From Pseudomonas phage vB_PaeM_GXNNA8, in sequence record PV400810.1: 64,000 nucleotides of DNA. The stretch is one strand, 5' to 3'. Numbering within the stretch: the first letter of the stretch is position 1; every line of letters starts with the position of its first letter. This document shows positions 101 to 47,874 of this stretch, piece after piece. The notes under the pieces were generated by a model. The model had not been told where the DNA came from and did not search any database. It saw nothing but the letters and a program-made list of their open reading frames with translations. The position numbers and the translations under genes are program-made.

Positions 101-118
101 ATAATGTAGGTTTAAAAT
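101..118 (-). promoter_or_regulatory. promoter-like 18-mer, copy 1 (ATTTTAAACCTACATTAT)
   Basis: Lies 22 nt upstream of the ATG at 78 and abuts the stop codon of the Rad50-like gene. Confidence 0.45.
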
Positions 119-2586
119 TAATTGATAACACTGTGTTGATTGACTTCACCCGGTAAACTCAACCCTTCATAACACATCGCAATTACATTCGGGTTGGTGA
201 ACATTCCGTATTGAGTAATGTAATGGCTAATCATGAAGAGTTGTTTAGCGTCCTTCTGGGTGGTTAACTCGTGAATGAAATTGAAGAAACGACCGCGTTT
301 GATTTCATCGAAGGTGGTACCCACCTCATCCAGCATCAGGGGGAAGTTGCCGTGGTAGCGAATGGCGACATACCGGAACGCGAAGTCAATGATACCTGCT
401 TCACCCAAACTGCAATCACTGACATCTGGCGTGGGTTCATCATCACCGGTAACCACCGGGAACTTCCAGTTCAAATCCCCGTTGTCCTTATGGCAGGGTT
501 TAACAAACAGGGTGGTGTTCCACACCGATTGAATCACCGCATTCATATTGGCGCAATAGGTCTTGATGAAATCCGTCATCAGCTTACCGATCAACCCCTT
601 ATTCGGACACAGACCGTTCATTAACCCATCCACAATCTTCAGACGGCGTTTTAAACGATCAATGTCTTCCGAAATAGACGCGACGACTGCACTCAACGAA
701 CGGCTTTTGATAATGGAGGCGAGGTATTCATCCTTCTCATCCGTTAGCAAATGAATCCGTTCATCAACCCGTTTACGCAGTTCCACTAACCCTTGTTGTT
801 CCAGCCCATTGAAGATCTCGTCTTTAAGACAGCGGAGGGTCTCCAGGTCTCGGGTGTAGGTGTGGATGGTCTTTAGGTTCCTTGTAAGCTGTTCAATACG
901 CCGACGGTAGAAACCAATACGACTGTTCTCCACTTCCAGGTCGTGTTCCAGACTCTTTAAGTAGGTGGCGATGTCTAATACCGAATCCTTCTGTAACAGC
1001 CCTATACGCGTGTTTAAGAGCTTTTCTTCTTCCAATAGGGCATCGATACGTTTCTTACAGTTAAAACGCCCCATGAAGGCCCTGAGGGCGTTTAAAAGGA
1101 TGTTGGTATCCGACTTACCCATGTCGTATGCTTTAATCAGCTCAGGAAGGCATTTAACGTCACCATTCATCCGACAGAACTGATGTAAGGCTAACATGCT
1201 GTGGTACCACTCACTGTCCTGTTCGACTAATTTTTCCAGGGTTTCAACATCCTGCACCAGTTTAGTCACACTCAACTTAAGGGCTTCCGCTTTAACCCGT
1301 GCTGCACGCAGTTCATTCGCGGTAATCCCGACCTTGAATTCATGGGTACATTCCGGACAAGTCACCAGTTCCATGGCATCATAATGTTTCAACTGGTGGG
1401 TGAGAGTGTCCAGCTCATTCTTAGAGGCCCTCAGTTGATTACGGGTTTGCTCCAATTTGACGGTATACTCTTTATACCGCCCTCCGGTTAACTCAGGAGT
1501 ACTGGCATTCACCACCCGACGCAATTGAGCCACCAAGGCCTCGTACACCAATTCCAAACCGGTAAAGTCATAGGCGTCATCGTTGAACAAAGGGTAATTA
1601 CCCAATAGCACCCCATGTTGTTTGTATTCTTCCCGGAGAGCAGTGAGTTCCACCTTGAGTTGTTCCGCTTGATGATGGAAGACAAAGGGATCTTCTTTGA
1701 TCTCTTCCATTCCTTCCAAAACCCCTACATGCTCACTGATGACCATTTGAATGGCAGTGGCTTGACCTTCGTGAACACTCAAGATAGCTTGAACTGTTTC
1801 GATTCCCTGTCTGAGTTCAACCTCGGTCTCAAAGAACCCACTGACTCGGTTCAACGCCATCTGCTCAGCCAGGCGCTTGAAAGTATCAATCTTACTTTGG
1901 AGCTCAGGGTCTACTTTCACCTGCTCCAAACCCCCTCGTACCAACAAGGACTCCCTCAGTTCAGTCTCAATCGTCTTAACTCGACGTTCCAGCTCTTCCG
2001 GACCACATTCGGTGATCTGCTTGAGTTTAGCACTCTCTTCCGTATACCGCGTGACTTGGTTCTTAATTGCAGCCGCCAGTTCACGACGTTCTGTCTTAAG
2101 CTTGTTAAAGACCCCTAAGGCGTAACTCGTGTCATTCGGGTAGATGAACATAAAGAAGTCTTTACGTTGAGCCACTGGCATCGCTGAAAACAGACTGTTG
2201 GGTTTAAGCCCGGACAGAATACGGCTGATAGTACTGTCTAACCGGAAATGGATCCATACCAAGTCCTTCTGTTCCGTAAAGGTTCCATTCTTGTTTAACT
2301 CTTTCCCGTTAAACTTGAAACTGTGACCATTGCCTAAGTCTGTTTTAGAATCCAAAACGAAATGGTCCAATCCCCGTTTAATCTCCACGTACTTGCGTCC
2401 AACACCGCGGTAGTTGGCATTTTCAGGAGCCAGGGGATTGGCTTCTCGGAGGATACTGGTTTTCCCGACACCGTTCTGAGCGATCAACAGGTTAACCAAA
2501 TGATTCAGATCCAATTCTACCCGTTTGATTCCGCTGCTTAACAGAGGAATGTAATTCTCTAGGATCAATTTAGTTAATATAAACAT
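118..2586 (-). CDS. Rad50/SbcC-like recombination ATPase (T4 gp46-like)
   Basis: N-terminal Walker A (LIAQNGVGKTSIL), a long central coiled coil with a CPEC zinc-hook-like motif, and a C-terminal Walker B/D-loop (LMLDEVGTTFDE...LFMISHY). At 822 aa it is typical of SMC/Rad50-family proteins. Confidence 0.75.
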   Translation of the reverse strand: MFILTKLILENYIPLLSSGIKRVELDLNHLVNLLIAQNGVGKTSILREANPLAPENANYRGVGRKYVEIKRGLDHFVLDSKTDLGNGHSFKFNGKELNKNGTFTEQKDLVWIHFRLDSTISRILSGLKPNSLFSAMPVAQRKDFFMFIYPNDTSYALGVFNKLKTERRELAAAIKNQVTRYTEESAKLKQITECGPEELERRVKTIETELRESLLVRGGLEQVKVDPELQSKIDTFKRLAEQMALNRVSGFFETEVELRQGIETVQAILSVHEGQATAIQMVISEHVGVLEGMEEIKEDPFVFHHQAEQLKVELTALREEYKQHGVLLGNYPLFNDDAYDFTGLELVYEALVAQLRRVVNASTPELTGGRYKEYTVKLEQTRNQLRASKNELDTLTHQLKHYDAMELVTCPECTHEFKVGITANELRAARVKAEALKLSVTKLVQDVETLEKLVEQDSEWYHSMLALHQFCRMNGDVKCLPELIKAYDMGKSDTNILLNALRAFMGRFNCKKRIDALLEEEKLLNTRIGLLQKDSVLDIATYLKSLEHDLEVENSRIGFYRRRIEQLTRNLKTIHTYTRDLETLRCLKDEIFNGLEQQGLVELRKRVDERIHLLTDEKDEYLASIIKSRSLSAVVASISEDIDRLKRRLKIVDGLMNGLCPNKGLIGKLMTDFIKTYCANMNAVIQSVWNTTLFVKPCHKDNGDLNWKFPVVTGDDEPTPDVSDCSLGEAGIIDFAFRYVAIRYHGNFPLMLDEVGTTFDEIKRGRFFNFIHELTTQKDAKQLFMISHYITQYGMFTNPNVIAMCYEGLSLPGEVNQHSVIN

Positions 2587-2636
2587 GGTATGAATTCTTT
2601 AAGTGAAGTGAGTCTCTAGATAATGAGGACGCGAGT

Positions 2637-28831: not shown

Positions 28832-28837
28832 GACCAA

Positions 28838-29392
28838 TTACCCCTGTGCTAGTTCATGAAGACGTCCAGCTGCTTTGAGTTTACGGATTTCACTGATCGA
28901 CTTACCGTATTTAGCGGCGAGTTCCCTGACCGTCCCTTCCGGAGCCGGTTTATTCGCAAAGCAGAACTTTTTGGGTGTTTCTTCTCGGCTGACACTCTGG
29001 GAGTGATCAGGGAAACGTCGACTGAGGTCTTCCAGGAATTCCTTAGCTTTGGTGATGTAAACCTTAAGGTAGGCGTGGCCTTCCGAGATATCACTTTCAG
29101 TCAATCGTTGTAACACAACCCTTTCTACGATTCCCTTGGCGGCACTGCCTTCAGTATCGTAGATCATTTTATTTATCAGTCCAACCGCATAACCATTTAT
29201 TGACTCTCCATAACCCTCTATTGACTCTCCAGAGGGCACACTCTTGAAACTGTGCAGCATGTGCTTCAAGTAGATAACATCACCAGTGTGCCCTGTTTCC
29301 ATCAGGAATAACGCCACTTCAAATCCGTTGTAACACCCCAGATCCTCTTGACGAGCAACGTCGAGTTCTTCCATTTGTTTTTCAGTAAACAT
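28838..29392 (-). CDS. HTH protein with a sigma-70 region-4-like C-terminus (possible phage sigma or transcription factor)
   Basis: C-terminal TVRELAAKYGKSISEIRKLKAAG resembles the sigma region 4.2 helix-turn-helix. A GAGGAA Shine-Dalgarno sits 9 nt upstream of the ATG at 29392. Confidence 0.45.
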   Translation of the reverse strand: MFTEKQMEELDVARQEDLGCYNGFEVALFLMETGHTGDVIYLKHMLHSFKSVPSGESIEGYGESINGYAVGLINKMIYDTEGSAAKGIVERVVLQRLTESDISEGHAYLKVYITKAKEFLEDLSRRFPDHSQSVSREETPKKFCFANKPAPEGTVRELAAKYGKSISEIRKLKAAGRLHELAQG

Positions 29393-29422
29393 TGGTTTAT
29401 TCCTCGTGGCTTAATACATCAA

Positions 29423-29440
29423 TAATCTAGGTTTAAAATA
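29423..29440 (-). promoter_or_regulatory. promoter-like 18-mer, copy 2 (minus-strand sense ATTTTAAACCTAGATTAT)
   Basis: Lies 30 nt upstream of the ATG at 29392 and immediately downstream of hairpin 29448-29482. Confidence 0.5.
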
Positions 29441-29447
29441 CGCTATA

Positions 29448-29482
29448 CCGTAATAAACCCTCCTACCTCCCTTCAAAGGGAG
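29448..29482 (-). terminator. hairpin ccctcctacctccctt / aagggaggtaggaggg (16 bp perfect)
   Basis: A perfect inverted repeat follows gene 29513-29809. Confidence 0.6.
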
Positions 29483-29512
29483 GTAGGAGGGTATTTACAC
29501 GGTGTTTACGGG

Positions 29513-31880: not shown

Positions 31881-31935
31881 GATGATTTCCTTTTAAGGGG
31901 GGGTAGGGTTGTAGGACGTGGGGAAGAGTATTCCA

Positions 31936-32301: not shown

Positions 32302-32376
32302 AAATCACCCAAATACGAAATGGAGGGTTGTAGGTTAATCGCCGAACTGATCGTTTTGGGTACCTATAAACTCCTC

Positions 32377-32874
32377 CTAGTTACGGGGTTTTACAGCGAT
32401 AACTTCGAATGCTTCACCGATAGGCTTGTCAGCGTAGAGGGCTCCCAACGGAACGTTAACGTCGAAGTATTTACCAAAAAGGTGAACGAATTCATCCGCT
32501 CCAAAGGTAAACCCCTTATTCTCTCCATTACACACGTTGATTTCCTCCCCACGGAAATCATAGACCCGCCTGGGAGTAACGAGGATAGCGCGTTGTTCCG
32601 CATCCGCAATCAGGCTTTGCCATCCTTCAAGGGTCAAATGGCAGGGGAGGGTCGTCAGTGAATACGCCGCTTTCATGCGTTCGGGGTTGGGTTTCTTGTA
32701 GAACACCGCACAGAGAATCGGTTGGCCTTCAATGGTCGATTCAAACGGGCAGGTGTAAAAGAAGTCGCCCTTTTGGATGTCATTGGTTACCAGCGCGTAC
32801 TGGCGATGACGAATCAACATACATAGAGTTTTTCTAGCCATTACAAATTCCTTGACTACTGAAATAACTACCAA
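32377..32874 (-). CDS. hypothetical protein (probable start MARKTLC... near 32838)
   Basis: ORF only. Confidence 0.45.
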   Translation of the reverse strand: MVVISVVKEFVMARKTLCMLIRHRQYALVTNDIQKGDFFYTCPFESTIEGQPILCAVFYKKPNPERMKAAYSLTTLPCHLTLEGWQSLIADAEQRAILVTPRRVYDFRGEEINVCNGENKGFTFGADEFVHLFGKYFDVNVPLGALYADKPIGEAFEVIAVKPRN

Positions 32875-32910
32875 CAGAGGCCCTGTGAGGCCTCTGTTGA
32901 ATGATTGTCT

Positions 32911-33696
32911 TTATTGTTTATCCGAAACACGACGAGACAATTTTTGTTGGTGGATTTCTTCTAGGGTGAGATCGGGGTTCTTATTACGAAGAGCCAGAAC
33001 ATCCCCCAGGAGTACTAGATCCCCCACTGCAACCTGATCCCCTGCCTTAGGAAACATCTCGTCATAAAGCTCCACATTGGAACTTTGGTTACTGATCTTA
33101 CCGATGACCTTGTCTTTCTCTTCCAAAGCAGTTTTAACTGAAGCGGAAGTGAACTCAAGTTCATGACTGCGGATATACCAGTACACCCACGGGTGAGCGC
33201 CCTCCAATGCCTTGGGGTAGAAGAGACTCGGTTCATTCTTACCCGGCAAGTAGGGCATGTTGGGTTGATCGGGATTCGTTTCGACGCGGTAGAAAGTCCT
33301 GGCGAGTTTATCTCCTCCACCCCATATGAAGTCGACTCCCCAGCGATCAACTGTTTTGACTTTCAAGTCGGAGGGATCGGTGTAGGAGAACTCGACAATG
33401 GAGAGATCGAACTCGTATTTCGTACCGGGAACAGGTGCGTTGTAATCACGACGCAGTATCCGGAATGTGAGGGGAAGATCGACCGAACCATCACCGAAGC
33501 GGGTGTTCTTATCAGTGAGCATCCGGTTAATGACTTCAGTAGCACTTTCGAGGCTGTGGAAGGTACTACAGTCCATCCAGGACTTGCTGAAATCGGGATA
33601 ACCACGAGAAGAGGGATCCTCGGCATAATACTGAGTGATGGTTCCCGGGTGGGAAGTGGAACGTTGGTCGACTTGAATGATGTAAAACGTGTTCAT
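32911..33696 (-). CDS. hypothetical protein, paralog family A, member 2 (261 aa)
   Basis: See 31074-31880. Confidence 0.55.
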   Translation of the reverse strand: MNTFYIIQVDQRSTSHPGTITQYYAEDPSSRGYPDFSKSWMDCSTFHSLESATEVINRMLTDKNTRFGDGSVDLPLTFRILRRDYNAPVPGTKYEFDLSIVEFSYTDPSDLKVKTVDRWGVDFIWGGGDKLARTFYRVETNPDQPNMPYLPGKNEPSLFYPKALEGAHPWVYWYIRSHELEFTSASVKTALEEKDKVIGKISNQSSNVELYDEMFPKAGDQVAVGDLVLLGDVLALRNKNPDLTLEEIHQQKLSRRVSDKQ

Positions 33697-33713
33697 ACCA
33701 CCCCCTCGTCTTG

Positions 33714-34037
33714 TTAAGTCAAAAGGTCACTGAAATTGTCATGTAGGATTTGGGTGAACGGCTCTCCCAAGTCTTCACAACATGGGTCACCTATTCTCTC
33801 GGCCAGATGATCCATGTGTAGATTATCGAGGAATTCCGTGTGTTCTTCCTCGCTGTACCAAGATTCAACGAGATGGTCTAACACACAATAATTGATTTCC
33901 CCGTCGTACTCGATAACTCGATACGTCCCATTCTCCAGGTATTCTTTGTTGTTATGGAAATCAACGGAATCCCGTTCGCCTACGATGGGACTCGACAGAG
34001 GGGTCCGTTCTTTCCCTTCCTTACGAACTGTTGCCAT
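33714..34037 (-). CDS. small, strongly acidic hypothetical protein (107 aa)
   Basis: Asp/Glu-rich throughout, for example EEEHTEFLDNLHMDHLAERIGDPCCEDLGEP. Confidence 0.45.
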   Translation of the reverse strand: MATVRKEGKERTPLSSPIVGERDSVDFHNNKEYLENGTYRVIEYDGEINYCVLDHLVESWYSEEEHTEFLDNLHMDHLAERIGDPCCEDLGEPFTQILHDNFSDLLT

Positions 34038-34061
34038 GGGGGTTACTCCTTCTGAAAGATG

Positions 34062-34544
34062 TTAAAAGTCTTCGACGTAGAAGAGTTTGACCAATTCAAT
34101 ATGACGAACCACTTTACCCAGGAGTTCGTCTTTGTAATCCACACCCCCATGCAACAGGTGTTTGTTCTTGAAATCCCGTTCCAGATCTTTCATTCCCCAG
34201 CCCAGGGTCCCTACGGTCAACCCTGCAATGACCCCTTTAGTGTTCCGTACGATCTTAATCCGGAAACGAATGTTCCCTGAATACCCTTCTCCGAAACCGT
34301 GGATAGCACCTTTGTTCCGCTCCTGGTAGATGGTGTGGAGAAAGAAGAAGTCTTCCGTCTTGGCTTCACCCCGGGGTAGGTGATTGAGAATATCCTTATC
34401 GATAGGGAGTTGGGTGATTACCCGATCGAAGTTGGAGAAGAACACCCCAACTTCCTCGTACCCTTTGTAAATGTCATCCACAACGCCGGGGAGGGGTTGA
34501 GCATTAATGATCATTTCTTGTAGCCGTGATTTAATCGGTAGCAT
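34062..34544 (-). CDS. hypothetical protein (160 aa)
   Basis: ORF only. Confidence 0.5.
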   Translation of the reverse strand: MLPIKSRLQEMIINAQPLPGVVDDIYKGYEEVGVFFSNFDRVITQLPIDKDILNHLPRGEAKTEDFFFLHTIYQERNKGAIHGFGEGYSGNIRFRIKIVRNTKGVIAGLTVGTLGWGMKDLERDFKNKHLLHGGVDYKDELLGKVVRHIELVKLFYVEDF

Positions 34545-34629
34545 TTTGGATTACCTCAGGTGTTTGTGAAATTCTAAATGATTCTGGTCAATGTACGTAT
34601 TAGATACACTCAACAGAATAATTTAACCA

Positions 34630-34650
34630 CCGGTAGGTTATCCCTACCGG
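34630..34650 (-). terminator. hairpin ccggtagg-ttatc-cctaccgg
   Basis: 8-bp perfect stem after gene 34669-35136. Confidence 0.45.
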
Positions 34651-34668
34651 GGTATTGATGGTGAGGGG

Positions 34669-35136
34669 TTAGTCTTTACCACCTTCAATGACCTTGAACG
34701 GAGAGGTGTGTCCATTCTGAGGTTTAGGGGCGGAGGATTCTTTCTTATCGTCCTGACCTGGAGGAGTGATTTCACCAGGGGCGAGCATCAGGTGACCATC
34801 TTCATCCTGACCTACGATTCGACACACCCCACCCAGGTAAATCAAGTCTCTGTTATACCGTACACCCAAGATATCTTCATACTTGATGAAGAGCTCGTAT
34901 ACCTTCCCCTGGCAACGGCATTCGAAATGAACGTACTCCTCATGGAAATGAAGGTACTTCACCGCGAACCCTCCGATGTTGAAGAAGACGCTGGGGTTCC
35001 CTTGACCGATTTCTTTCACTTCAGGGCTGGCGTCGGTGTTAACCAGGATGACACACGCACCCGTGGTTTCATTCAGGTAGGTGTACAGGGCTTCCAGGTG
35101 CAGTTTACGGAAGTCCGGTGGCATTTTCTTCGACAT
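34669..35136 (-). CDS. hypothetical protein; possible SspB-like adaptor fold with a flexible C-terminal tail
   Basis: The hydrophobic pattern L-A-Y-YL...VILVNTD...VFFNIGGFAV..L.F.EEYVHF resembles the SspB substrate-binding domain. A Gly/Pro/Lys-rich tail ends in ...SPFKVIEGGKD, where the SspB ClpX-binding tail ends in LRVVK. The similarity is weak. Confidence 0.4.
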   Translation of the reverse strand: MSKKMPPDFRKLHLEALYTYLNETTGACVILVNTDASPEVKEIGQGNPSVFFNIGGFAVKYLHFHEEYVHFECRCQGKVYELFIKYEDILGVRYNRDLIYLGGVCRIVGQDEDGHLMLAPGEITPPGQDDKKESSAPKPQNGHTSPFKVIEGGKD

Positions 35137-35267
35137 AACGGTGTCCTATAAGTGGATTAATGACAAAAGGTTTTTAATCAACGATGGATGGACCCAGTTT
35201 ACTCCCTAGGTCAATCCTGTACTGCTTGGCGAATACCTCCTATGAGGCGCCAACATCCAGGTCTTTT

Positions 35268-35519
35268 TCATACGGTTCTCCTGTAGAACAGGTTGTATTT
35301 AAAGAAGTCTTCAAGGGAATAGATATACCTGGGATCAGTGACCAGCCAGCATTGACCATCCCGAACTTCAACACGACGGGCATGTTGATAGACGTGATGA
35401 TGGTGCGAAGGGGAGGTTACATAAGTCCCATTGGGGAGTTTCCGCAATTCCTCTTGACTCAGAAACTTTCCATTAGGATTTATTCCGGTAGGGTAACAAC
35501 CCTTATTCATTCTAAACAT
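35268..35519 (-). CDS. small hypothetical protein (83 aa; contains HHHH)
   Basis: ORF only. Confidence 0.35.
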   Translation of the reverse strand: MFRMNKGCYPTGINPNGKFLSQEELRKLPNGTYVTSPSHHHHVYQHARRVEVRDGQCWLVTDPRYIYSLEDFFKYNLFYRRTV

Positions 35520-35535
35520 ACGTCTTCCTCAAGAA

Positions 35536-35559
35536 AGTCTCCCCTAAGGAGGGGAGACT
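35536..35559 (-). terminator. hairpin agtctcccc-taagga-ggggagact
   Basis: 9-bp perfect stem between minus-strand genes. Confidence 0.45.
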
Positions 35560-35575
35560 GTTTGCCGTTAATCCT

Positions 35576-36007
35576 TTACACTTCGGAGGGAGGAAGGTTC
35601 TGATACGCATTCAACAGAAGCTCACCCACCTCCAAGGCATGGGAATGGGAATACCCCATAACCTGACTGTACCAAGTCACCCACTCAGGAGAGAGCTGAT
35701 TGTCTTCAGTCAAGAGAGGGGGTTGAGGAAGCCCTTGTCCAACGTTCACCCTACCCCCAGAATTCACCCCGACTTGCATCCAACGATTGTACTTCAAGGA
35801 AAGACAATTGGGGAATTCCTTTTTGTACGCATTCAACTTGGTATCCGCCTCTTCCAGGAGAGACATGGATAACGCAAACATCTCCTCACTCCTGTTAACA
35901 TTCGCGGCGGCCGAGACCTTAACCAGAAGCTGATTAGCTTCCGAAATCAGACTAAAGATTTCAGCCACTCTTGCCCGACGTTTCTTCGCTTCATCTGGCG
36001 TTAGCAT
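35576..36007 (-). CDS. hypothetical protein (143 aa)
   Basis: ORF only. Confidence 0.45.
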   Translation of the reverse strand: MLTPDEAKKRRARVAEIFSLISEANQLLVKVSAAANVNRSEEMFALSMSLLEEADTKLNAYKKEFPNCLSLKYNRWMQVGVNSGGRVNVGQGLPQPPLLTEDNQLSPEWVTWYSQVMGYSHSHALEVGELLLNAYQNLPPSEV

Positions 36008-36096
36008 GGTATTTCCCTATGTGAAAAATGAAAGAGACGTAAAGAACCCGCCTCCTCATCCCTCTTAAACAGGACAAGGAAGCGGGGGTGGGTTCT

Positions 36097-36294
36097 TCAG
36101 TGTTGGTAGACCAGGATCTCTTGCCCGTTAGGGGCGATGCGATGTCCCAAGATCACCTCTTGAGATTCATCTTCCTGAGTCTCTTGGCCGTAGTTCGCGT
36201 TCACGAACAAGAAGCCGAACATAACACCAACGCACAGAAGAAGCAGGCCGCTGGATTTCATAATAAACACCTTCCTGGCTGAGTGGGTTACCAA
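36097..36294 (-). CDS. small secreted or membrane-anchored protein (signal-peptide-like MKSSGLLLLCVGVMFGFLFVNA)
   Basis: N-terminal hydrophobic signal and an acidic mature part. Confidence 0.35.
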   Translation of the reverse strand: MVTHSARKVFIMKSSGLLLLCVGVMFGFLFVNANYGQETQEDESQEVILGHRIAPNGQEILVYQH

Positions 36295-36336
36295 AAAAGA
36301 AGAGGAGAAGGGATAACCTTCTCCTTGGAACAGACG

Positions 36337-36693
36337 TTACTCGCTGGCGCTTGGTAGGGCTTCTTGGGCGGCACCCATTACCGAACCAGCCAGTTCACCC
36401 GCGGTGATGGCGATCGACGCACCGAGCAGACCCGACCAGGCACTACCCAGAATGGTAGCTGGCGTACCGAGGTGTTGAACAGGGGACACCAGACGACCCG
36501 CCGCCCAACCGACGGTCACACCGGCCGCACCGGCGATCAGGGACGAACCGATGTTTTTGGTGCCATTGAAATGGGCGGCGGCACCCAGGACGCCTCCGAC
36601 GATCCCGGCGACAGTTGTGGCTGCGAAACCTTCCTTGCGCTCACCGGTGAAGGATTTGTTGGTGGTTTTGGCTTTGTCATTGGAAGTGGTCAT
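36337..36693 (-). CDS. glycine-zipper membrane protein (118 aa)
   Basis: GxxxG/AxxxG-rich hydrophobic segments (VAGIVGGVLGAAAH, LIAGAAGVTVGWAAG, LLGASIAITAGELAGSVMGAA) typical of glycine-zipper two-TM proteins. Confidence 0.5.
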   Translation of the reverse strand: MTTSNDKAKTTNKSFTGERKEGFAATTVAGIVGGVLGAAAHFNGTKNIGSSLIAGAAGVTVGWAAGRLVSPVQHLGTPATILGSAWSGLLGASIAITAGELAGSVMGAAQEALPSASE

Positions 36694-36825
36694 GGGTGAG
36701 TCCTCGTTCGTGTGTAGGAAATGGGGAGTAAAACAGTTAACAACTAATAGGATTGTTGCTATTCACCCTGATTATTTAGATCTGAAAATAACTGTAAGTT
36801 AAATAAATAAACCAATAAGGAATAC

Positions 36826-36855
36826 CTACCCTAGTGGAGATCCACTAGGGTAGGT
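36826..36855 (-). terminator. 30-bp perfect palindrome cctaccctagtggaGATCtccactagggtagg
   Basis: Fully self-complementary and centred on GATC. It lies downstream of gene 36892-39237. Confidence 0.55.
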
Positions 36856-36891: not shown

Positions 36892-39237
36892 TCAGAAGAG
36901 ATCCAACAGGACCAAGGGACTTCTTCGACTGACCACCCGAAGAGTGGCGACATTCTTATCGACGGCTGAGTAACTGAATAACCAGAGTTGATCACCTCCG
37001 GAGAATTGAATCAGTTTATCAATAACGTCCAGGTTATCCGTCTCTTTCATCGTTCCCTTGAATCCTTTCTCTATGAGATCGAAGTACTCCGGGAATCGAC
37101 TGCGCTTAATGATCAAGGGTTCTCCCGATGGATCCGGCAACGGCCCATTGCGCTTATTGATCACCGTGATGTGGAAGCGGCGTTCCAACGGTAGCTCCAA
37201 CTTCTTCTGAGCTTCTTGGATTAGCCCGCCCTCTTCACTTTCTACGCCATCGTATTTCCCATCGGGAACGAACAGTTTCATTTGTTCCGTCAGGTAGTTA
37301 CCCGGCCCTCCCGGTTCGTTGAACCGTCGGTACCCTTCAGGATGATCTTCTTCCAGGATCTTATCCAGCTCGTCGAAGTCCTCGACGATGTCGGTTACCG
37401 ACAGATGGTTCCGTGAGCTGGGTAAGCGTTCATACCCCAGGGAACTGACGAACCACGCATTCACCGTTGCGGTCAGACGAGTCCGAATGAACTCACCCAA
37501 CTCCTCATCCAGAATCCCTTCATCCAGGTACTCCTTAACCGCTTTCATCCGGTGGTAATACGACGGGGAGTGATCGTCCTCCTTAAAGTCTTTAAACAGG
37601 AACGGGAGATCGTTCTTGAGTCGGATTTTATCCCGAGCGTCGGAACAGGTGAAGGTATCCCAGATCGTAGCAGAGAACGACGTGGCGTTGGTCCCTGGCA
37701 TGTTCTTACTCAGGGCGGTGTTGGTCGTCACCACAGCCGCCATCAGCTTCTTAGACGTCGCGCTGACGATACCTTCGGACACCGTAACCACTGGGATCCC
37801 TTCCAATTCTTCACAGGTCTCCAGCGTGATCTCCAGGGACTTGGTATCTTCTACCACCTTCTCCACCGGCAGGACCACCACGTCATTACCGTCTTCCGTA
37901 GCTTCCAGCAACGGCAACAGCTTTTCAGGGCTAGACAGAGCAGTGACCATATCGAGTGTACGACTCCTTACAACAGTGCTGAACCAGCCGTTATCCTTTT
38001 CCAGGTCAATAATCACAATACGGAAACAACCCGGGAGGATACTCTCTTCTTGAGCAGACTGTTCAGGGTGGCGTTTATAAACCTTCTTTATCCGCTTCCA
38101 ATCCGTTTCCGGAATCAGATAATGCTTGGGTTTACCGATGTAATGGAAATAACTGGTGAGATCAAACTCATCCTTGTTCTTAACGGTCAGGTTTTCAAGA
38201 TCATTCCGGACCTTATTCCAGCGTTGAACTTCTGGGGGTTGGAACCGAGGATCTTCAGGGCGAGTATACCCCTGGTTGTCCCGTCTGGCCAGCTCAGCCC
38301 GTTTCCTCACCATTTCAAAGATGTCTTCAGTGGTTGGATCGTTCTGGGATTCCACGCCGTTGTTCGCTCCAAAGTTAGAATGAAGGAAGGCGGTTTGTGC
38401 TTCGTGGATCAGATGGCTCTCCGTCGTGGTTGGCGTCTTCACCTCGTACACCAGGGACGCATAAGGATTCGTACAACCTAACGTGTTACAGGCGAGGCTA
38501 AACGTATCCTTGAAATGCTCCAGGTTAGCGATCATTTTCTGGATTTCAGGGGTCAACCTATACGTGAACTGTCGGCCTGCCGGACTCTTGCACAACCAGG
38601 AGATCATCTCCATGGTTAAAACCGACCGATAGGCAAAGACTGCGGATCCCATATAGTCCGACGTCGTCAACTCCGAAGACCCTTGTTTACCCAGGACAAT
38701 CAGTCGCTGGACAAACATCGGCACAGAGGCCGTTGAGATAAAGCGGAGGGTTTCAGGGTACTTGTTCAGGTTGTTAACGAATTCATCCCGAATGGGACAT
38801 TTAACCGGGGTTTTAGGAACAAAACGAAAGTTTTCTAAGGTCTCCCGGTATTCGTTATAGAACGCCCCTTGCCGTCTTCCTAGCTGCTGAATCAATTCCA
38901 CCCCAGCACGGGAAAACTTCTCCAAGAAGAGTTGGTTACTATCTATTTCAGAATTCGCATTCTCCCGGATCTCCCGGAGCGCAGCGTCTTCATAGAGGGA
39001 GTTACCGTAGCGTTCCCAATGGATGGAACCCCCACCCCCACCCTGACTATTCCCTTGCAGGCCGTGTTCGAGGACACCACGGAGTTGCATGGACGGTGAC
39101 ATCTGGTTGTACATACCTTGACGGGCGCCAAGGCCCATCGCCGTACCAGAAGCCCCGGGGATGGGTGCATTAGGATCTATTGAGACGGTTCCTCGGTTGA
39201 CTTGTCCGGATGGACGGAGGATGTTTGCCATGGCCAT
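36892..39237 (-). CDS. large hypothetical (probably virion) protein, 781 aa
   Basis: Long ORF. The antisense 309-aa ORF 37552-38481 is Arg-rich and was rejected. Confidence 0.6.
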   Translation of the reverse strand: MAMANILRPSGQVNRGTVSIDPNAPIPGASGTAMGLGARQGMYNQMSPSMQLRGVLEHGLQGNSQGGGGGSIHWERYGNSLYEDAALREIRENANSEIDSNQLFLEKFSRAGVELIQQLGRRQGAFYNEYRETLENFRFVPKTPVKCPIRDEFVNNLNKYPETLRFISTASVPMFVQRLIVLGKQGSSELTTSDYMGSAVFAYRSVLTMEMISWLCKSPAGRQFTYRLTPEIQKMIANLEHFKDTFSLACNTLGCTNPYASLVYEVKTPTTTESHLIHEAQTAFLHSNFGANNGVESQNDPTTEDIFEMVRKRAELARRDNQGYTRPEDPRFQPPEVQRWNKVRNDLENLTVKNKDEFDLTSYFHYIGKPKHYLIPETDWKRIKKVYKRHPEQSAQEESILPGCFRIVIIDLEKDNGWFSTVVRSRTLDMVTALSSPEKLLPLLEATEDGNDVVVLPVEKVVEDTKSLEITLETCEELEGIPVVTVSEGIVSATSKKLMAAVVTTNTALSKNMPGTNATSFSATIWDTFTCSDARDKIRLKNDLPFLFKDFKEDDHSPSYYHRMKAVKEYLDEGILDEELGEFIRTRLTATVNAWFVSSLGYERLPSSRNHLSVTDIVEDFDELDKILEEDHPEGYRRFNEPGGPGNYLTEQMKLFVPDGKYDGVESEEGGLIQEAQKKLELPLERRFHITVINKRNGPLPDPSGEPLIIKRSRFPEYFDLIEKGFKGTMKETDNLDVIDKLIQFSGGDQLWLFSYSAVDKNVATLRVVSRRSPLVLLDLF

Positions 39238-40889
39238 GGTTCTCTTTTCTTGAGGCGTTTATCTGTTCGTTCGTAGAGTTCTTTAAATTGAGGGTCTAAG
39301 CCCGTTGTACGATTATTGATCAGATAAATGCTTGGATTAAGGAATCCCCGTGCATCAGGATTAGGATTCGTAACCCGTAAAAAACTATGAACAAAGGGAA
39401 GCGACGCGTGGGTAAAGGTTGAGCTGTCTGACGTGTCGAAGTCACCCCGTTTACGCTTACCACCACCGGTATAGACCTTGTGTTGGGGCATGCAGCCCAA
39501 CCCGTAGTCTACGAACGGATTATCCGTAGGGGTGGGTTCCAGGATAAGGTTGGCGTATTGTGCATTGTCGATCTCCTTAATAGGGAAATTGTGAGTCAAG
39601 AACCTCGCCACCTTTTTCTGGTTGATTTCCGAGTTGTTCTTGATATCGTGCTTGAAGTTATTGGCAGACGTCAGCAGACTGTCCAGCGTGAATTCCAAAC
39701 TGGCCAAGTCTTTATTGAACGCTGACGCACGGTCGGTGGTCTGGACAATCTCACTGCGGTTCGCAATGATGTAGTTGAACAGATCAAACATATTGGTCAC
39801 TACGATCGATTTAGCAGCGAACTTCTTAATCGAATCTTCATCCAGGTACTCCCGGATGGAATCGAAGTGCTCATACATCAAACGCATGATGTACTCGTCA
39901 CTGTCACCCGCCTTAACGGAACACCGCCCTATGATCAGCTTCCAATAGTCCGGATCATCCAACCGTTCAATATCAAAGTACGACGAACAACAGTTCGCAA
40001 TGAACAATAAAGCACAGCTGTACTGTAACCCGACTGCGCTCAGTTCCTTACGACTGCTAGACTTGTTCCGTACCGCAATACCGATGTCCAAACTGACATA
40101 ATCACCTAACGAAGGTTTATTATCCGAAGCACGCTTAGGACCGGTAAAGACTTCCCACCGGTCTTCTGCCTTGCATTCGTTAAGCAGCGCATCCAGAGAG
40201 CCTATACGGAAGTCACACTCCGCATATTCCTCCATGGCCGTACTGAAGCCCATGTCCGCAAAGATATACCACGCCAACAACGGAACAGGGGTCTTACTGT
40301 CCTTGATCTTCCGGGATTCGGTTGGACTGTAGAAGCGGTTAGCCGCCAGGTTGATGTCCGTGTGACGATGGGTCTCAATCCCTGTGTCGGTAAAGACTTG
40401 ACAGAAATTGAAATGCTCGATTCCAATCTTAAACTTGAAACCCAGCACTTTCACGAACAAGGCGTTCTCTTTCGTTACGGGTAGACCCTGTTCAGCGAGT
40501 ACGATCTGAGGATTATACAACGATCCCCTCAACCACAGATCCCCGTACTTATTCGTATACGGGAGCATCGTGTAGGTGTAAAAGTCCGTTAACTTACCCC
40601 CTCGGTCCTTATACTGGATCCAGATCTTAACCGGATACAGGCTTTCCTTATGGACATCGAAGACTTTACGACTGCTGTTGATCAAGTAGTCAATGAACTC
40701 CCGGGGTGAAGCCCGTGTGGTTTTCTTGTAAAAGACACCCCGTTTCTCAACACTTTTCAGAATGGCCCTCATGGAATGATCGAACACTCCTAACGCATTA
40801 CTAAACTCCTTCTGATGAAATCCATCCACCAGTAACTTATTGAACTTCGGCATGGAATTTTCAATGTGTTTAATGAGTTGCCGGTCCAT
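39177..40889 (-). CDS. hypothetical protein (570 aa)
   Basis: ORF co-oriented with and overlapping the downstream gene. Confidence 0.6.
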   Translation of the reverse strand: MDRQLIKHIENSMPKFNKLLVDGFHQKEFSNALGVFDHSMRAILKSVEKRGVFYKKTTRASPREFIDYLINSSRKVFDVHKESLYPVKIWIQYKDRGGKLTDFYTYTMLPYTNKYGDLWLRGSLYNPQIVLAEQGLPVTKENALFVKVLGFKFKIGIEHFNFCQVFTDTGIETHRHTDINLAANRFYSPTESRKIKDSKTPVPLLAWYIFADMGFSTAMEEYAECDFRIGSLDALLNECKAEDRWEVFTGPKRASDNKPSLGDYVSLDIGIAVRNKSSSRKELSAVGLQYSCALLFIANCCSSYFDIERLDDPDYWKLIIGRCSVKAGDSDEYIMRLMYEHFDSIREYLDEDSIKKFAAKSIVVTNMFDLFNYIIANRSEIVQTTDRASAFNKDLASLEFTLDSLLTSANNFKHDIKNNSEINQKKVARFLTHNFPIKEIDNAQYANLILEPTPTDNPFVDYGLGCMPQHKVYTGGGKRKRGDFDTSDSSTFTHASLPFVHSFLRVTNPNPDARGFLNPSIYLINNRTTGLDPQFKELYERTDKRLKKREPWPWQTSSVHPDKSTEEPSQ

Positions 40890-40901: not shown

Positions 40902-42053
40902 TCAGGAAGTACATAGTTTATACCCCGCAGCAAACACGGTTGCAATCGCCCCGATCGCCTTAGCCACTTCTCCCCAGTTGTTAGCGCTGGCCCGTTGGCG
41001 GGTGAACTCCAGATTCGCCTTACTCAAGGTCTTGTCCATTTCACTCCGTACTTTGGTCGCATCATTGTTGATTTGCAGCCGATTCACCTCCAGTTGACGT
41101 TCATTTCTCGCTTGCATGAGTTCCAACCGATGAGCACTTTTGAGGTGGGTCAGCTCGATACCCAACTCAACACTCTTACGGACATTCTCGTCTACCAAGT
41201 CCTTCAGTTTGGAAATCTCGTTATTGGCTGAACTCAGTTGTTTATTCAGTTCAACCACTTTCTTCTCGGCAGTCATTGCCCGTTCTGTATTACCCCCCAT
41301 TTCGCATTCCGCTTTGGTCTTAAAGATACCCAGGAAACCCAGGGTTTCATCGCAGAGATGGTCAAAGGTGTAGAATAGCTTCTTCGGTAGTGAATTACCG
41401 TAGGCCAATCCCACATACAACCCATGATCTTTATTCATCTCCCTGACCGTAGGGACCATTACCGCTTTACCCATGACATTGGTGTACAACGGGTTTTGAA
41501 CACTCAGGGGATCGTTCAGATACACGTAGTAATGAAGACCTCCCGGCTCATCACTCTCACTGATCCCCCACTTCATCAGGTCATTGAGGGTGTAGTCTGG
41601 CGTATTCAGGGGATAGAGATCGCTGGTATTCTCTTCCCGGTTATACAACGTGATACCGAGGATATCACTGTGGATCGGTTCACCTTCCAGGTCTTCAACC
41701 ACATCCCTGTTCAGTTTGATCGTGACGCCGAAGTCATGATACTGCCGAATGTCCACGTGCGACTCTTTGCTCGACACAAAGCTCAGGTGAGCTTGGATCT
41801 TATCAATCAACAGACGATCGAATTTACTCCGCGCTGCTGACTTATCAAAACTGAAATCACCGACATACAGACGATCGAATTTGATGTCAATCATCGCCCC
41901 GGGATACCACGAAGCCTCTAGCGGTTTGCGAATAAGGTAACTCAATCCCCCTTTCGCTTTGACAATAATCTGTTTGCTGCTCATATTAGTGATATCATAA
42001 GTCAGCCGGAAATGCCGGTAGGGTGAAACATCATTCATGGTGAGGATCCTCAA
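40902..42053 (-). CDS. protein with a C-terminal coiled coil and a terminal hydrophobic segment (383 aa; ATG at 42038 more likely than TTG at 42053)
   Basis: Heptad-like region KVVELNKQLSSANNEISKLKDLVDEN...LEVNRLQINND with terminal AIGAIATVFAAGYKLCTS. The + strand reads caa at 42051-53, so the listed start is a TTG. Confidence 0.55.
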   Translation of the reverse strand: MRILTMNDVSPYRHFRLTYDITNMSSKQIIVKAKGGLSYLIRKPLEASWYPGAMIDIKFDRLYVGDFSFDKSAARSKFDRLLIDKIQAHLSFVSSKESHVDIRQYHDFGVTIKLNRDVVEDLEGEPIHSDILGITLYNREENTSDLYPLNTPDYTLNDLMKWGISESDEPGGLHYYVYLNDPLSVQNPLYTNVMGKAVMVPTVREMNKDHGLYVGLAYGNSLPKKLFYTFDHLCDETLGFLGIFKTKAECEMGGNTERAMTAEKKVVELNKQLSSANNEISKLKDLVDENVRKSVELGIELTHLKSAHRLELMQARNERQLEVNRLQINNDATKVRSEMDKTLSKANLEFTRQRASANNWGEVAKAIGAIATVFAAGYKLCTS

Positions 42054-42110
42054 GTTAGTGTCAAGATCATCTGGTGCGCGGTCAGATAACCTATTGTCTT
42101 GTACCCAAGG

Positions 42111-42128
42111 ATAATGTAGGTTTAAAAT
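42111..42128 (-). promoter_or_regulatory. promoter-like 18-mer, copy 3 (ATTTTAAACCTACATTAT)
   Basis: Sits immediately downstream of hairpin 42160-42193 and about 72 nt upstream of the ATG at 42038. Confidence 0.5.
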
Positions 42129-42159
42129 ATTCCAATAAACGGTATAACTGCAAATATAA

Positions 42160-42193
42160 CCCTACCCACTCCCCGTTAAGGGAGTGGGTAGGG
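42160..42193 (-). terminator. hairpin ccctacccactccc-cgttaa-gggagtgggtaggg (14 bp perfect)
   Basis: Directly follows the codon-optimised probable capsid gene. Confidence 0.65.
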
Positions 42194-42270
42194 CTAATGG
42201 TACACGCAATTTCCGTGAGGTACCTACTAAGGCAGCTCTGGATACTCAAGCCGCCCGTAATTCGCAGGAC

Positions 42271-46702: not shown

Positions 46703-46738
46703 CCCCTACCCCCTAGCCTGAGAGCTAGGGGGTAGGGG
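46703..46738. terminator. bidirectional hairpin cccctaccccctagc-ctgaga-gctagggggtagggg (15 bp perfect)
   Basis: Lies between the convergent helicase (+) and the ParB-like (-) genes. Confidence 0.65.
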
Positions 46739-46747: not shown

Positions 46748-47107
46748 TTACATAACGCGATTACGGTAACCCTTTACTTTAAAGGGGCTTCCTTTACCTT
46801 TAAACCAGTCCGTTGGAATGACCTTAACGTTCAAGGTGGGTTGTCCTTCCCAATGGGCTTTAAGGAACCGGTGCCAGCCATCAATGATCACCCACTCTCC
46901 TTCCCATTCCGTAATCAGCAACGGAAAGGAATAATCCGCTCGCTTAATCCGGTCCTTGTCCTCTTCAACGGCATGCGCCAGGAGCCATTCAAAGTCCTTT
47001 AAGGGAACCGTTTGAACGGGGAGTGTCTCACTTCGACGGAGGAAGTCGTTGAGGTGGTAGACTTTACCGTCATGAACGAACGTAGATCCATATTCCTGAT
47101 ACGCCAT
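46748..47107 (-). CDS. ParB/Srx-fold (ParB-like nuclease domain) protein, candidate
   Basis: WVIIDGWHRFLKA contains the DGxHR signature of ParB N-terminal-like domains. Confidence 0.35.
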   Translation of the reverse strand: MAYQEYGSTFVHDGKVYHLNDFLRRSETLPVQTVPLKDFEWLLAHAVEEDKDRIKRADYSFPLLITEWEGEWVIIDGWHRFLKAHWEGQPTLNVKVIPTDWFKGKGSPFKVKGYRNRVM

Positions 47108-47814
47108 TAGTCCCCCTTAATGGGTAGATCCATCCGAACAGTTCGAGTCGGTTGGGTGTAGTCTTCCAACAGGCCCATGAGCTGCTCCCGGAGACGATCC
47201 CAGCTCGGTTGAGTAATCGTTAGGTTATCCAACTTCAGTCGGATATTCCGAACCTCAGGGTCTGCGAAGACTTCCGTCAACGGGAAATACGCATAGTTCC
47301 GTCCTATTTTAAACCGAACCTTGTATTTCTCGTCAAAGAACTTCAAACTGTGATTCAACCGTTCCAGCAAGATACTCGCCACGTGTTCTTCCGGTAGAGA
47401 CAGGTAATAATCCCCGTCTTGGGTAAAGACCAACCCTTCCTTATCGTGGAGGGTGACTTTACCGGCTTCTAATACGGCTTCAAACCGCCCGTCCTTGTTG
47501 TCGTGGAACATCAGGGTATGGGTGCTCCGTCCCATCTTCACCACCCGCTTATTGTGCTTATAGCACGCAATCACCACCAACAACGGTAACGTCTGGTAAT
47601 CATACGAACGATCGCTTAGGTATTCCTCCACTTCCCCCTCGCTGGTTTCACGGATAATCACCAGGTGTTCAGCATACACGTCATACAACACCGATTCGTT
47701 ATGATCCAGCAACGTGGTAAAAAACCGTTTGGATTCACCGTTAATGAACAGACCGGTGTCATGTGTATGGGTTTTACCCAATAGGTCTTGTTCAAACACC
47801 ACTTGGTAATGCAT
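47107..47814 (-). CDS. hypothetical protein (235 aa)
   Basis: An AGGAG Shine-Dalgarno sits 9 nt upstream of the ATG at 47814. The stop/start overlaps the next gene by 1 nt. Confidence 0.5.
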   Translation of the reverse strand: MHYQVVFEQDLLGKTHTHDTGLFINGESKRFFTTLLDHNESVLYDVYAEHLVIIRETSEGEVEEYLSDRSYDYQTLPLLVVIACYKHNKRVVKMGRSTHTLMFHDNKDGRFEAVLEAGKVTLHDKEGLVFTQDGDYYLSLPEEHVASILLERLNHSLKFFDEKYKVRFKIGRNYAYFPLTEVFADPEVRNIRLKLDNLTITQPSWDRLREQLMGLLEDYTQPTRTVRMDLPIKGD

Positions 47815-47856
47815 AAACCGAATCTCCTAAATGATCCATTGGGTATAATCACGACG

Positions 47857-47874
47857 GTAATATAGGTTTGATTT
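47857..47874 (-). promoter_or_regulatory. promoter-like 18-mer, variant copy 4 (AAATCAAACCTATATTAC)
   Basis: Matches the consensus at 14 of 17 positions. It lies downstream of hairpin 47904-47930 and 43 nt upstream of the ATG at 47814. Confidence 0.4.

Follow-up and report, generated by a model that had tools for sequence, protein, structure and literature searches.

The closest described system is Pseudomonas phage EL, whose sequence record (AJ697969/NC_007623) carries nine 19-nt features labelled "putative phage promoter". Their consensus, WTTTYAAACCTACATTATY (Hertveldt et al. 2005), has been tabulated in later papers beside the motifs of phiKZ (TATATTAC), OBP, and 201phi2-1. The early promoters of phiKZ, 201phi2-1, OBP, N1M2, phiR1-37, and AR9 share an AT-rich octamer, TATATTAC/TATATTAT, near -10. 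In AR9 the layout TATATTAT-(6N)-G+1 was mapped experimentally, and in phiKZ and phiR1-37 transcription starts 6 nt past the consensus, a spacing taken from the text of the AR9 paper. The phiKZ early promoters have been described as "extended -10 plus T-rich upstream of -19", and the intrinsic terminators of the phiKZ type consist of a GC hairpin followed by TTAT (Putzeys et al. 2024).

The 64,000-nt stretch of DNA analysed here (the window) is approximately 95% identical to EL AJ697969 as its reverse complement; the window phage is a relative of EL and not EL itself. An initial annotation of the window had noticed a repeated 18-mer, read it as a phage promoter set in terminator-promoter cassettes, and pointed to a likeness to the phiKZ early consensus. 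The likeness is confirmed, EL WTTTYAAACCTACATTATY being tabulated next to phiKZ TATATTAC. The repeated motif is a known element of EL, and since it has been annotated there from 2005 on and its consensus published, finding it again is a rediscovery that matters little as such. The practical gain is an extended definition of the signal with predicted starts for the five promoters of the window, about 12 sites beyond the EL annotation, and positional conservation between Elvirus and Risingsunvirus. Such results could help with re-annotation and in choosing templates for biochemical work on the virion RNA polymerase, which is still poorly understood.

Motif copies in the window

The 18-mer ATTTTAAACCTASATTAT occurs three times without mismatch in the window, always on the minus strand (118-101, 29439-29422, and 42128-42111), whereas no exact copy is expected by chance (100 dinucleotide-preserving shuffles). 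No further copy was found in the window at up to three mismatches. The exact recurrence that had been claimed is therefore borne out, and the coordinates first given for two of the copies hold; the second had been placed one nucleotide off, at 29440-29423. The variant AAATCAAACCTATATTAC, which the same annotation had added as a 14/17 match, does lie at 47874-47857 but matches only 13/18 positions, so that it is not significant on its own.

With a 32-nt matrix that includes the flanks, the family in the window has five members: the three exact copies, this variant at 47874, and an additional copy at 36788-36770. All five score 28-38 bits and the next best site less than 8; the maximum over 50 shuffles of the window was 17.5 bits, against 28.2 bits for copy 4. 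Copies 1-3 match the 19-nt consensus WTTTYAAACCTACATTATY at 19/19 positions; copies 4 and 5 deviate from it at 4-5 positions and join the family only via the extended matrix. For copy 4, positional counterparts in other genomes add to the matrix score. The putative promoters are the following.

93..124, minus strand: putative promoter copy 1, core ATTTTAAACCTACATTATT at 118-100, exact, 35.9 bits, predicted +1 at the G at 94
29414..29445, minus strand: putative promoter copy 2, core ATTTTAAACCTAGATTATT at 29439-29421, exact, 29.4 bits, predicted +1 at 29415
36763..36794, minus strand: putative promoter copy 5, core TTTTCAGATCTAAATAATC at 36788-36770, 34.0 bits, predicted +1 at the G at 36764
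42103..42134, minus strand: putative promoter copy 3, core ATTTTAAACCTACATTATC at 42128-42110, exact, 38.3 bits, predicted +1 at the G at 42104
47849..47880, minus strand: putative promoter copy 4 (the variant of the initial annotation), core AAATCAAACCTATATTACC at 47874-47856, 28.2 bits, predicted +1 at the G at 47850

The core of copy 4 carries the phiKZ-type TATATTAC. Copy 5 had been missed by the initial annotation and has no annotation in EL; it also lies behind a hairpin. All five sites are in non-coding DNA and have the same orientation as the genes. For copies 1-4 the distances to the start codon (22, 29, 72, and 42 nt) agree with those first described, and so does the presence of a ribosome-binding site, of the AGGA/GAGG type, before each of these start codons.

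Sites in the EL genome and the extended signal

The three exact copies are orthologues of three of the nine annotated EL features, with the same sequence at orthologous positions. Copy 1 corresponds to the feature at 132472-132490 (upstream of ORF119), copy 2 to 103608-103626 (upstream of ORF098), and copy 3 to 90601-90619 (upstream of ORF079). The EL counterparts of copies 4 and 5, at 84856 and 95946, both lack annotation there. Across the EL genome, 21 sites reach 18.7 bits or more, all of them on the main coding strand and in non-coding DNA, which makes up 7.6% of the genome; leave-one-out scores were at least 20.5 bits, against a shuffle maximum of 18.6. About 12 of these are additional to the nine annotated boxes, two of them in the part that corresponds to this window. 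The 18 EL sites that were tabulated lie 22-104 nt (one 320 nt) upstream of an annotated start, and an annotated structural gene directly follows 0/21 sites. The placement upstream of genes that had been proposed thus holds in EL, where 21/21 sites are strictly intergenic and co-oriented with the genes. The motif is absent inside EL genes, and so the comparable frequency in coding regions that the initial annotation had named as evidence against a promoter was not seen.

The matrix built on the EL genome sites gave a longer signal than the 19-nt boxes of the EL annotation, reaching from an A at -29 to a G at +1. In full it spans about 30 bp: the A near -29, a T-run at about -23 to -20, AAACC at -19 to -15, the octamer TAYATTAY at -14 to -7, six bases, and the invariant G. 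Most sites have TTTY at -23 to -20, which corresponds to a T-rich tract upstream of about -19. The octamer is present in 5/5 window sites (TAAATAAT in copy 5) and in 18/18 tabulated EL sites. At the level of sequence only, a G stands exactly 6 nt past it in 21/21 EL sites and in 4/5 window sites, and this spacing is fixed while the distance from site to start codon varies. Nine sites had been picked by the 19-nt core alone; position 25, which the search had not used, is a G in 9/9 of them, which reproduces the AR9 layout. At the predicted +1 of copy 2 (29415) the window has an A, and EL, HHBS47_1, and vB_PQ1 have a G in the alignment. This A counts against the explanation that we favour below.

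Upstream hairpins

A strong GC hairpin lies 18-35 nt upstream of copies 2-5 (4/5). The hairpins were found by folding and by a purpose-made scan for a hairpin followed by TTAT; a standard terminator scan missed those of copies 2-4, because G-T/A-T extension of the stem consumed the T-rich tail.

29457..29492, minus strand: predicted terminator hairpin of copy 2, 16 pairs, then TTATTAC, 17-18 nt upstream
36824..36855, minus strand: predicted terminator hairpin of copy 5, 14 pairs, 35 nt upstream, z = -5.6
42157..42196, minus strand: predicted terminator hairpin of copy 3, after the major capsid gene, then TTAT, 31 nt upstream, z = -7.5
47902..47932, minus strand: predicted terminator hairpin of copy 4, then TGTTAT, 27 nt upstream, z = -5.8

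The 90-nt segments upstream of copies 2-4 fold at -36.5 to -46.5 kcal/mol with z = -5.8 to -8.6; the one of copy 2 (-43.0 kcal/mol, z = -8.6) was also found in the hairpin+TTAT scan, which likewise recovered the hairpins of copies 3 and 4. The initial annotation had placed a perfect GC hairpin before three of its four copies, and this is confirmed, although the spacing is 18-31 nt and not "a few nt". Folding gave no hairpin upstream of copy 1, where the first base of the motif is the last base of the preceding stop codon. The hairpins of copies 2-4 resemble the phiKZ-type terminators in their perfect G/C-rich stems with TTAT within 0-3 nt; the hairpin of copy 5 differs, TTAT coming only 6 nt downstream. 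In HHBS47_1 the inner stem and the loop of the copy 3 hairpin are changed and a GC-rich hairpin is kept. The Rfam search returned tRNA only.

Genes downstream of the sites

Downstream of copy 1 the window contains the start of an ORF119-like gene (ATG at 78-76), which runs off the window. The genes behind the other copies are the following.

28838..29392, minus strand: ORF098-like gene, 184 aa, downstream of copy 2, function not predicted
36337..36693, minus strand: ORF082-like gene, 118 aa, downstream of copy 5
39177-40889, minus strand: ORF080-like gene, 570 aa, second gene downstream of copy 3
40902-42038, minus strand: ORF079-like gene, 378 aa, first gene downstream of copy 3
47107..47814, minus strand: gene downstream of copy 4, 235 aa, the same 235-aa ORF being annotated in HHBS47_1

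Judged by its database matches, the ORF080-like protein is homologous to gp123, a subunit of the non-virion RNA polymerase of phiKZ: it matches PDB 7ogp_E PHIKZ123 at E = 1.9e-6, falls in phrog_2943 ("polymerase"), and is 62% identical to RisingSun gp85, annotated as "RNA polymerase beta prime subunit". Five RisingSun genes that bear the label RNA polymerase beta or beta' have homologues in EL; split beta/beta' subunits of phage multisubunit RNA polymerases are thus encoded, as in phiKZ-related jumbo phages. The ORF082-like gene is the first of a block of small genes, tRNA-Thr among them.

The product of 28838-29392 had been called a sigma-region-4-like HTH protein. No Pfam family was found at E<=0.01 (best lax match Thioredoxin_13, E = 0.25), the PHROG match is phrog_24977, itself of unknown function, and a comparison with PDB sequences gave no relative, only Sec15 at E = 0.76. 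An identity as sigma-70 region 4 is therefore unsupported by Pfam (strict and lax), PHROGs, and PDB sequences. All that may remain of the earlier label is a short C-terminal helix-turn-helix (residues ~155-181, pLDDT 76-84), suggested by an AlphaFold single-sequence model that is poor overall (pLDDT 45).

Conservation in other phages

The cassettes of EL, HHBS47_1, and vB_PQ1 align at approximately 97-100% identity across their whole length, so that comparing the conservation of motif and flanks among these close relatives is uninformative. In the Erwinia phage RisingSun, whose orthologous proteins are 27-62% identical and whose intergenic DNA cannot be aligned, four of the five promoter positions of the window recur. 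The counterpart of copy 1 (RisingSun 113962) directly follows the SbcC-like gene, that of copy 4 (77122) lies upstream of gp79, and that of copy 5 (88197) upstream of gp87. The terminator-promoter cassette of copy 3 recurs with the capsid gene on one side and the ORF079/RNAP-subunit genes on the other. Further RisingSun sites stand before the tubulin-like gene and before operons with RNA polymerase subunits. From these comparisons, the predicted promoter positions are conserved between Elvirus and Risingsunvirus. Klebsiella phage Miami has an OBP-type version of the motif at the capsid/ORF079 junction. An exact-pattern scan of IMG/VR found the same 17-mer behind a G-rich hairpin and TTAT in many uncultivated viral contigs of 197-238 kb; it is to be read qualitatively only, as many chance or coding matches also came up in AT-rich contigs.

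Discussion

By analogy with related phages, it is probable that the motif is the core of an early-class promoter of an EL-like (Elvirus) jumbo phage, most likely read directly by the virion RNA polymerase (vRNAP) without host sigma-70. The core of the initial reading, a phage-specific promoter in terminator-promoter cassettes that is related to the phiKZ early TATATTAC, is supported. The analysis shows the anatomy of the sequence, its intergenic and co-oriented placement across the genome, the conservation of positions between genera, and the identity with annotated and published motifs; we infer the start at the conserved G, the early timing, and vRNAP as the enzyme, the early class being assigned by analogy with phiKZ, 201phi2-1, AR9, and phiR1-37. 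A search of the accessible literature returned no start-site map, time course, or in vitro transcription for EL or another Elvirus, and so the EL motif is called a promoter by inference.

Under this explanation, a multisubunit vRNAP packaged in the virion and injected with the DNA would recognise the motif directly and would initiate at the conserved purine, a G usually within GTG, six unconstrained bases past the octamer. The GC hairpin with TTAT would act as a phiKZ-type intrinsic terminator of the preceding, mostly late or structural, unit, and since that unit would end there, the promoter would open an insulated one. Small proteins of unknown function would be made from the units so started, and the unit behind copy 3 would add a subunit of the non-virion RNA polymerase, the second polymerase, which would take over later. 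The position of copy 3 at the head of the operon with the gp123 homologue is as expected if vRNAP must express the non-virion polymerase. In 201phi2-1, however, the early promoter is missing from some non-virion polymerase subunit genes, and the tie of copy 3 to gp123 is therefore no more than suggestive. One near-consensus motif of AR9 is silent, so that single sites may also be inactive here, the weaker copies 4 and 5 above all.

The six phages with known early promoters share further traits with the EL type: a T-rich upstream tract, a conserved start position 6 nt past the consensus (predicted in EL), often GTG, and intergenic sites that head operons of small unknown and polymerase subunit genes. 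EL differs in that its commonest form has a C at octamer position 3 (TACATTAT), and the AAACC block is specific to the clade of the EL type and the RisingSun-like phages. EL has ~21 predicted sites, against 28-32 in phiKZ.

It is improbable that the motif is a phage promoter of the middle class, served by the non-virion RNA polymerase, or one that both phage polymerases use and that is not purely early. The early timing in EL is a prediction by analogy; some AR9 genes bear early and late promoters, several 201phi2-1 polymerase subunit genes are under middle or late promoters, and AAACCTAC bears a loose likeness to the middle motif of phiKZ, in which an A-rich run is followed by TACT centred at -22. 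However, bioinformatics fails to find the middle and late motifs of phiKZ-like phages, which are weak, whereas strongly conserved AT-rich motifs centred at -10 are early in every phage tested. The octamer, 6-nt spacer, and G agree with the mapped early layout, and none of the 21 EL sites comes directly before an annotated structural gene.

We regard it as quite unlikely that the motif is a non-promoter element, namely, a site bound by a phage regulator or a signal for processing or translation that acts in read-through RNA. It does always have a terminator or stop codon on one side and a ribosome-binding site on the other, and promoter activity in EL is a prediction. Against this, the distance to the start codon varies (22-104 nt, one 320) with the octamer-G spacing fixed, and primary 5' ends have been mapped downstream of the homologous motifs in phiKZ, 201phi2-1, and AR9. 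Copy 1, moreover, shares a base with a stop codon and lacks a hairpin, so that RNA structure at the level of the cassette is not required.

The 3' part of the motif had also been described as -10-like, and the AT-rich hexamer is indeed of that kind and shared with bacterial sigma-70 promoters; the -35/-10 architecture of such promoters was not found in the consensus scan (hexamers at 16-18 nt spacing), and the conserved upstream bases are wrongly placed. A host sigma-70 promoter with TACATTAT as its -10 box is hardly credible and was rejected, for despite the similarity of CATTAT/TATTAT to TATAAT and a weak match overlapping copy 5 (CTTACA-16-AATAAT, 9/12), there is no excess of sigma-70-like matches (14 found, 19.4 expected) and none falls at copies 2-4 (copy 1 lay outside the scan), no bases are conserved where a -35 would sit, the conserved AAACC and T-run at -24 to -15 do not form a sigma-70 element, transcription in phiKZ-type phages does not depend on the host polymerase, and the genome encodes polymerase subunit homologues.

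Within the early promoter reading, we raise tentatively, as a doubtful proposal, that the family comprises two conserved subtypes, a near-invariant TTTYAAACC-TACATTAT and a CARGTC-TATATTAC that may be nearer to the OBP and phiKZ consensus. EL-like and RisingSun-like phages, with proteins down to 27% identity, may both retain the two forms at orthologous positions. If AAACC served the virion polymerase, or a specificity factor injected with it, as a further recognition element, the subtypes could set different early strength or timing and, if true, would offer a handle on how promoters are read by a sigma-less multisubunit polymerase.

The Motif Is the Putative Promoter Annotated in Phage EL

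The window contains three exact copies of the degenerate 18-mer ATTTTAAACCTASATTAT, always on the minus strand, against 0 copies expected from dinucleotide-preserving shuffles, and no additional copy was found in the window with up to three mismatches allowed. The initial annotation had these three copies right, except that its coordinates for copy 2 were one base too high. Its variant (copy 4) is present, but matches at only 13 of 18 positions. A scan with the 32-nt matrix described below gave five matches at 28-38 bits, all others scoring 8 or less, and so added copy 5, which had been missed.

Motif copies in the window, with predicted transcription starts
Copy 1: 118-101, minus strand, exact ATTTTAAACCTASATTAT match; predicted start 94 (6-nt spacing to the conserved G)
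Copy 2: 29439-29422, minus strand, exact ATTTTAAACCTASATTAT match; predicted start 29415 (A in the window, G in three relatives)
Copy 5: 36788-36770, minus strand, TTTTCAGATCTAAATAATC, matrix match; predicted start 36764 (6-nt spacing)
Copy 3: 42128-42111, minus strand, exact ATTTTAAACCTASATTAT match; predicted start 42104 (6-nt spacing)
Copy 4: 47874-47857, minus strand, variant AAATCAAACCTATATTAC; predicted start 47850 (6-nt spacing)

By megablast, the window in reverse complement groups with the Elvirus jumbo phages of Pseudomonas aeruginosa, at ~95% identity to EL (AJ697969/NC_007623) as well as several isolates of recent date. The EL record holds 201 CDS and nine 19-nt features labeled "regulatory: promoter, putative phage promoter", which together read ATTTyAAACCTACATTATy and include the counterparts of all three exact copies.

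EL promoter features with a counterpart in the window
90601, upstream of ORF079: copy 3
103608, upstream of ORF098: copy 2
132472, upstream of ORF119: copy 1

The EL consensus WTTTYAAACCTACATTATY, credited to Hertveldt et al. 2005, is tabulated in a 2020 paper beside predicted promoters of phiKZ (TATATTAC), OBP, 201phi2-1, and N1M2, so that the likeness to phiKZ noted in the initial annotation was correct. Since it is annotated in the EL record and its consensus is published, the element is already known and the motif is a rediscovery. The reading as a phage promoter in terminator-promoter cassettes is supported by annotation, literature, and comparative evidence alike, and each of copies 1-4 is indeed followed, 22-72 nt downstream, by an ATG on the minus strand whose ribosome-binding site is purine-rich, as had been claimed.

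An Extended Signal Reveals Unannotated Sites

A first matrix trained on the nine annotated boxes was applied to EL and found nine extra sites, all intergenic, on the main coding strand and upstream of annotated starts. When the 18 sites were aligned with their flanks, a G was found at the 25th position in 18/18, mostly inside GTG, and an A five bases ahead of the box in 15/18. Because this G was not used in finding the sites, its presence in all nine extra sites (chance probability ~0.25^9) is independent support. The 32-nt matrix added three further sites, giving 21 at 18.7 bits or more, all within non-coding DNA, which makes up 7.6% of EL. In leave-one-out tests no score fell below 20.5, versus a shuffled-genome maximum of 18.6 and a top coding-region match of 15.9; the comparable frequency inside genes that would have spoken against a promoter was thus not found in EL.

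EL sites without annotation in AJ697969 (plus strand, intergenic)
18, 17569, 26005, 40997, 84856, 95946
139694, 141104, 149097, 164541, 165830, 206521

These 12 include one site ahead of the GroEL-like chaperonin ORF146 and two ahead of operons in which RNA polymerase subunit homologues occur (ORF023-024 and ORF037-039). The extended consensus and the additional unannotated sites, two of them in the window, are mildly new. In the region EL 84856-85622, the annotation gives ORF074 142 aa and places its start 320 nt after a promoter-like site, while in the window (47107-47814, minus strand) and the EL-like relative HHBS47_1 a 235-aa ORF begins 42 nt after the site; a wrongly called start in EL or a frameshifted gene is the probable cause.

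Layout and Probable Mechanism

According to the AR9 transcriptome paper, AR9 early promoters read AAATATATATTAT-(6N)-G+1, and transcription in phiKZ and phiR1-37 starts 6 nt past the consensus. The EL family has a matching sequence layout, with an octamer TAYATTAY, exactly six unconstrained bases and an invariant G, and this spacing makes the G the predicted +1. The octamer then falls at -14 to -7, AAACC at -19 to -15, the T-run at -23 to -20 and the A at -29, in agreement with the phiKZ "extended -10 box and T-rich motif upstream of -19" and with the conservation at -10, -20, and -30 in 201phi2-1. Copy 2 is the sole family member that lacks the G (29415-29417, minus strand, GTA versus GCG in EL, HHBS47_1, and the EL-like vB_PQ1).

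In reviews, strongly conserved AT-rich motifs near -10 are early promoters in every such phage profiled and are attributed to the virion RNA polymerase, middle and late motifs being weak. By analogy, the most likely mechanism, in which we have good confidence, is that the injected virion RNA polymerase would recognize the motif directly and initiate at the conserved G, with phiKZ-type terminators insulating each promoter unit from the one upstream. No published start sites, timing, or polymerase for EL-type phages were found in the literature searched. That the promoters are read by the phage's non-virion polymerase, or by both polymerases, is improbable in view of the early class given to such motifs in those reviews. 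An RNA-level or operator element in place of a promoter is still less probable, given the fixed octamer-to-G spacing in EL and the mapped start sites downstream of related motifs in other phages. A host sigma-70 promoter is very unlikely, as a consensus scan of 29.0-48.5 kb gave 14 sites versus 19.4 expected, none of them on copies 2-4.

Hairpins and Terminators

Each of copies 2-4, three of the initial four as first described, has a strong hairpin before it, but these hairpins end 18-31 nt ahead of the motif and not a few nt from it. For the 90-nt segments upstream of these copies, folding energies range from -36.5 to -46.5 kcal/mol, with z-scores of -5.8 to -8.6 versus shuffles. A 14-pair hairpin lies 35 nt ahead of copy 5; none was found in the 90-nt segment upstream of copy 1, whose first base is the final base of the preceding gene's stop codon. 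The hairpins of copies 2-4 are followed by TTAT, the reported signature of 61 phiKZ intrinsic terminators; at copy 5, TTAT lies 6 nt past the hairpin. A scan for hairpin plus TTAT found six elements in the window, three of which precede copies 2-4, versus 0-3 elements in shuffles. Four other strong GC hairpins without a promoter motif are presumably stand-alone phiKZ-type terminators.

GC hairpins with a TTAT or T-rich tail and no promoter motif behind
24997-25038, plus strand, presumably stand-alone
32871-32900, minus strand, presumably stand-alone
46703-46738, minus strand, presumably stand-alone
57740-57771, minus strand, presumably stand-alone

Genes Served by the Motif

Copy 3 heads an ORF079-like gene followed by the gene for a 570-aa protein. 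This protein is a homolog of PHIKZ123, the chain E subunit in the solved structure of the phiKZ non-virion RNA polymerase (PDB 7ogp; E = 1.9e-6), matches a phrog labeled "polymerase" and is 62% identical to the "RNA polymerase beta prime" of Erwinia phage RisingSun. Copies 1, 2, 4, and 5 head small proteins of unknown function, copy 5 preceding the gene at 36337-36693. A polymerase subunit and small proteins are the content expected of early units.

The sigma-region-4 label given to the 184-aa protein at 28838-29392 is unsupported: Pfam, PDB, and PHROG searches gave no sigma match; the protein fell into no Pfam family, had no relative among PDB sequences, and matched only a PHROG of unknown function. 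Its structure model, built from the single sequence, is of poor overall quality (pLDDT 45), with a helix-turn-helix in the C-terminal ~30 residues (TVRELAAKYGKSISEIRKLKAAGRL, 28838-28930, minus strand; pLDDT 76-84), formed by two short modeled helices and a turn at residues ~155-174. A small C-terminal helix-turn-helix is plausible from this model, possibly as a short tail by which an early protein binds DNA.

Conservation in Other Phages

Close relatives add little because their cassettes are nearly identical, and more distant phages were compared. Distant homologs of the protein downstream of copy 3 occur in RisingSun (28% identity) and Klebsiella phage Miami (23%). The RisingSun interval between capsid gene and homolog holds a GC hairpin, TTTATTAC, then TTTTTAAACCTACATTATT, with the G at the expected position; the same capsid-side interval of Miami holds a hairpin with TTAT and the OBP-type ATTTTTTAAGGACTATATTATC. 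In the first 150 kb of RisingSun, the EL-trained matrix found ~19 sites on the plus strand; nearly all are intergenic, and four match window copies.

RisingSun sites matching window copies
Directly after the SbcC-like gene: copy 1
Before gp79: copy 4
Before gp84: copy 3
Before gp87: copy 5

Flanking genes of EL-type phages and RisingSun are orthologous by tblastn (SbcC 47%, capsid 57%, helicase 56%, polymerase subunit 62%). Other sites common to EL and RisingSun lie before the tubulin-like gene and before operons with RNA polymerase beta and beta' homologs. The conservation of promoter positions across genera is mildly new, and two conserved motif subtypes are a possible further point of this kind. 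The exact 17-mer was also found behind a G-rich hairpin and TTAT on many contigs of uncultivated viruses (197-238 kb), with chance matches elsewhere too. An informative case among the close relatives is the capsid terminator of HHBS47_1, in which inner stem and loop are changed and a GC-rich hairpin is retained.

Copy 2 sits within a small-gene block (EL ORF083-102) that is absent from RisingSun, where gp87 is directly followed by the ORF103 homolog. The block comprises ~20 small genes (window ~25600-36300) and looks like an Elvirus-specific accessory (early-gene) insertion. It also holds, downstream of copy 5 and ~590 nt upstream of copy 2, a tRNA-Thr (anticodon CGT; 30027-30102, minus strand), while the EL GenBank record has no tRNA feature and vB_PQ1 annotates one. 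In the latter (PQ516283.1, 108000-134000) each of the capsid, helicase, and polymerase genes is broken into 3-6 CDS, and "CRISPR" repeat_region features are placed within coding DNA; both look like error-rich assembly or automatic annotation, not biology.
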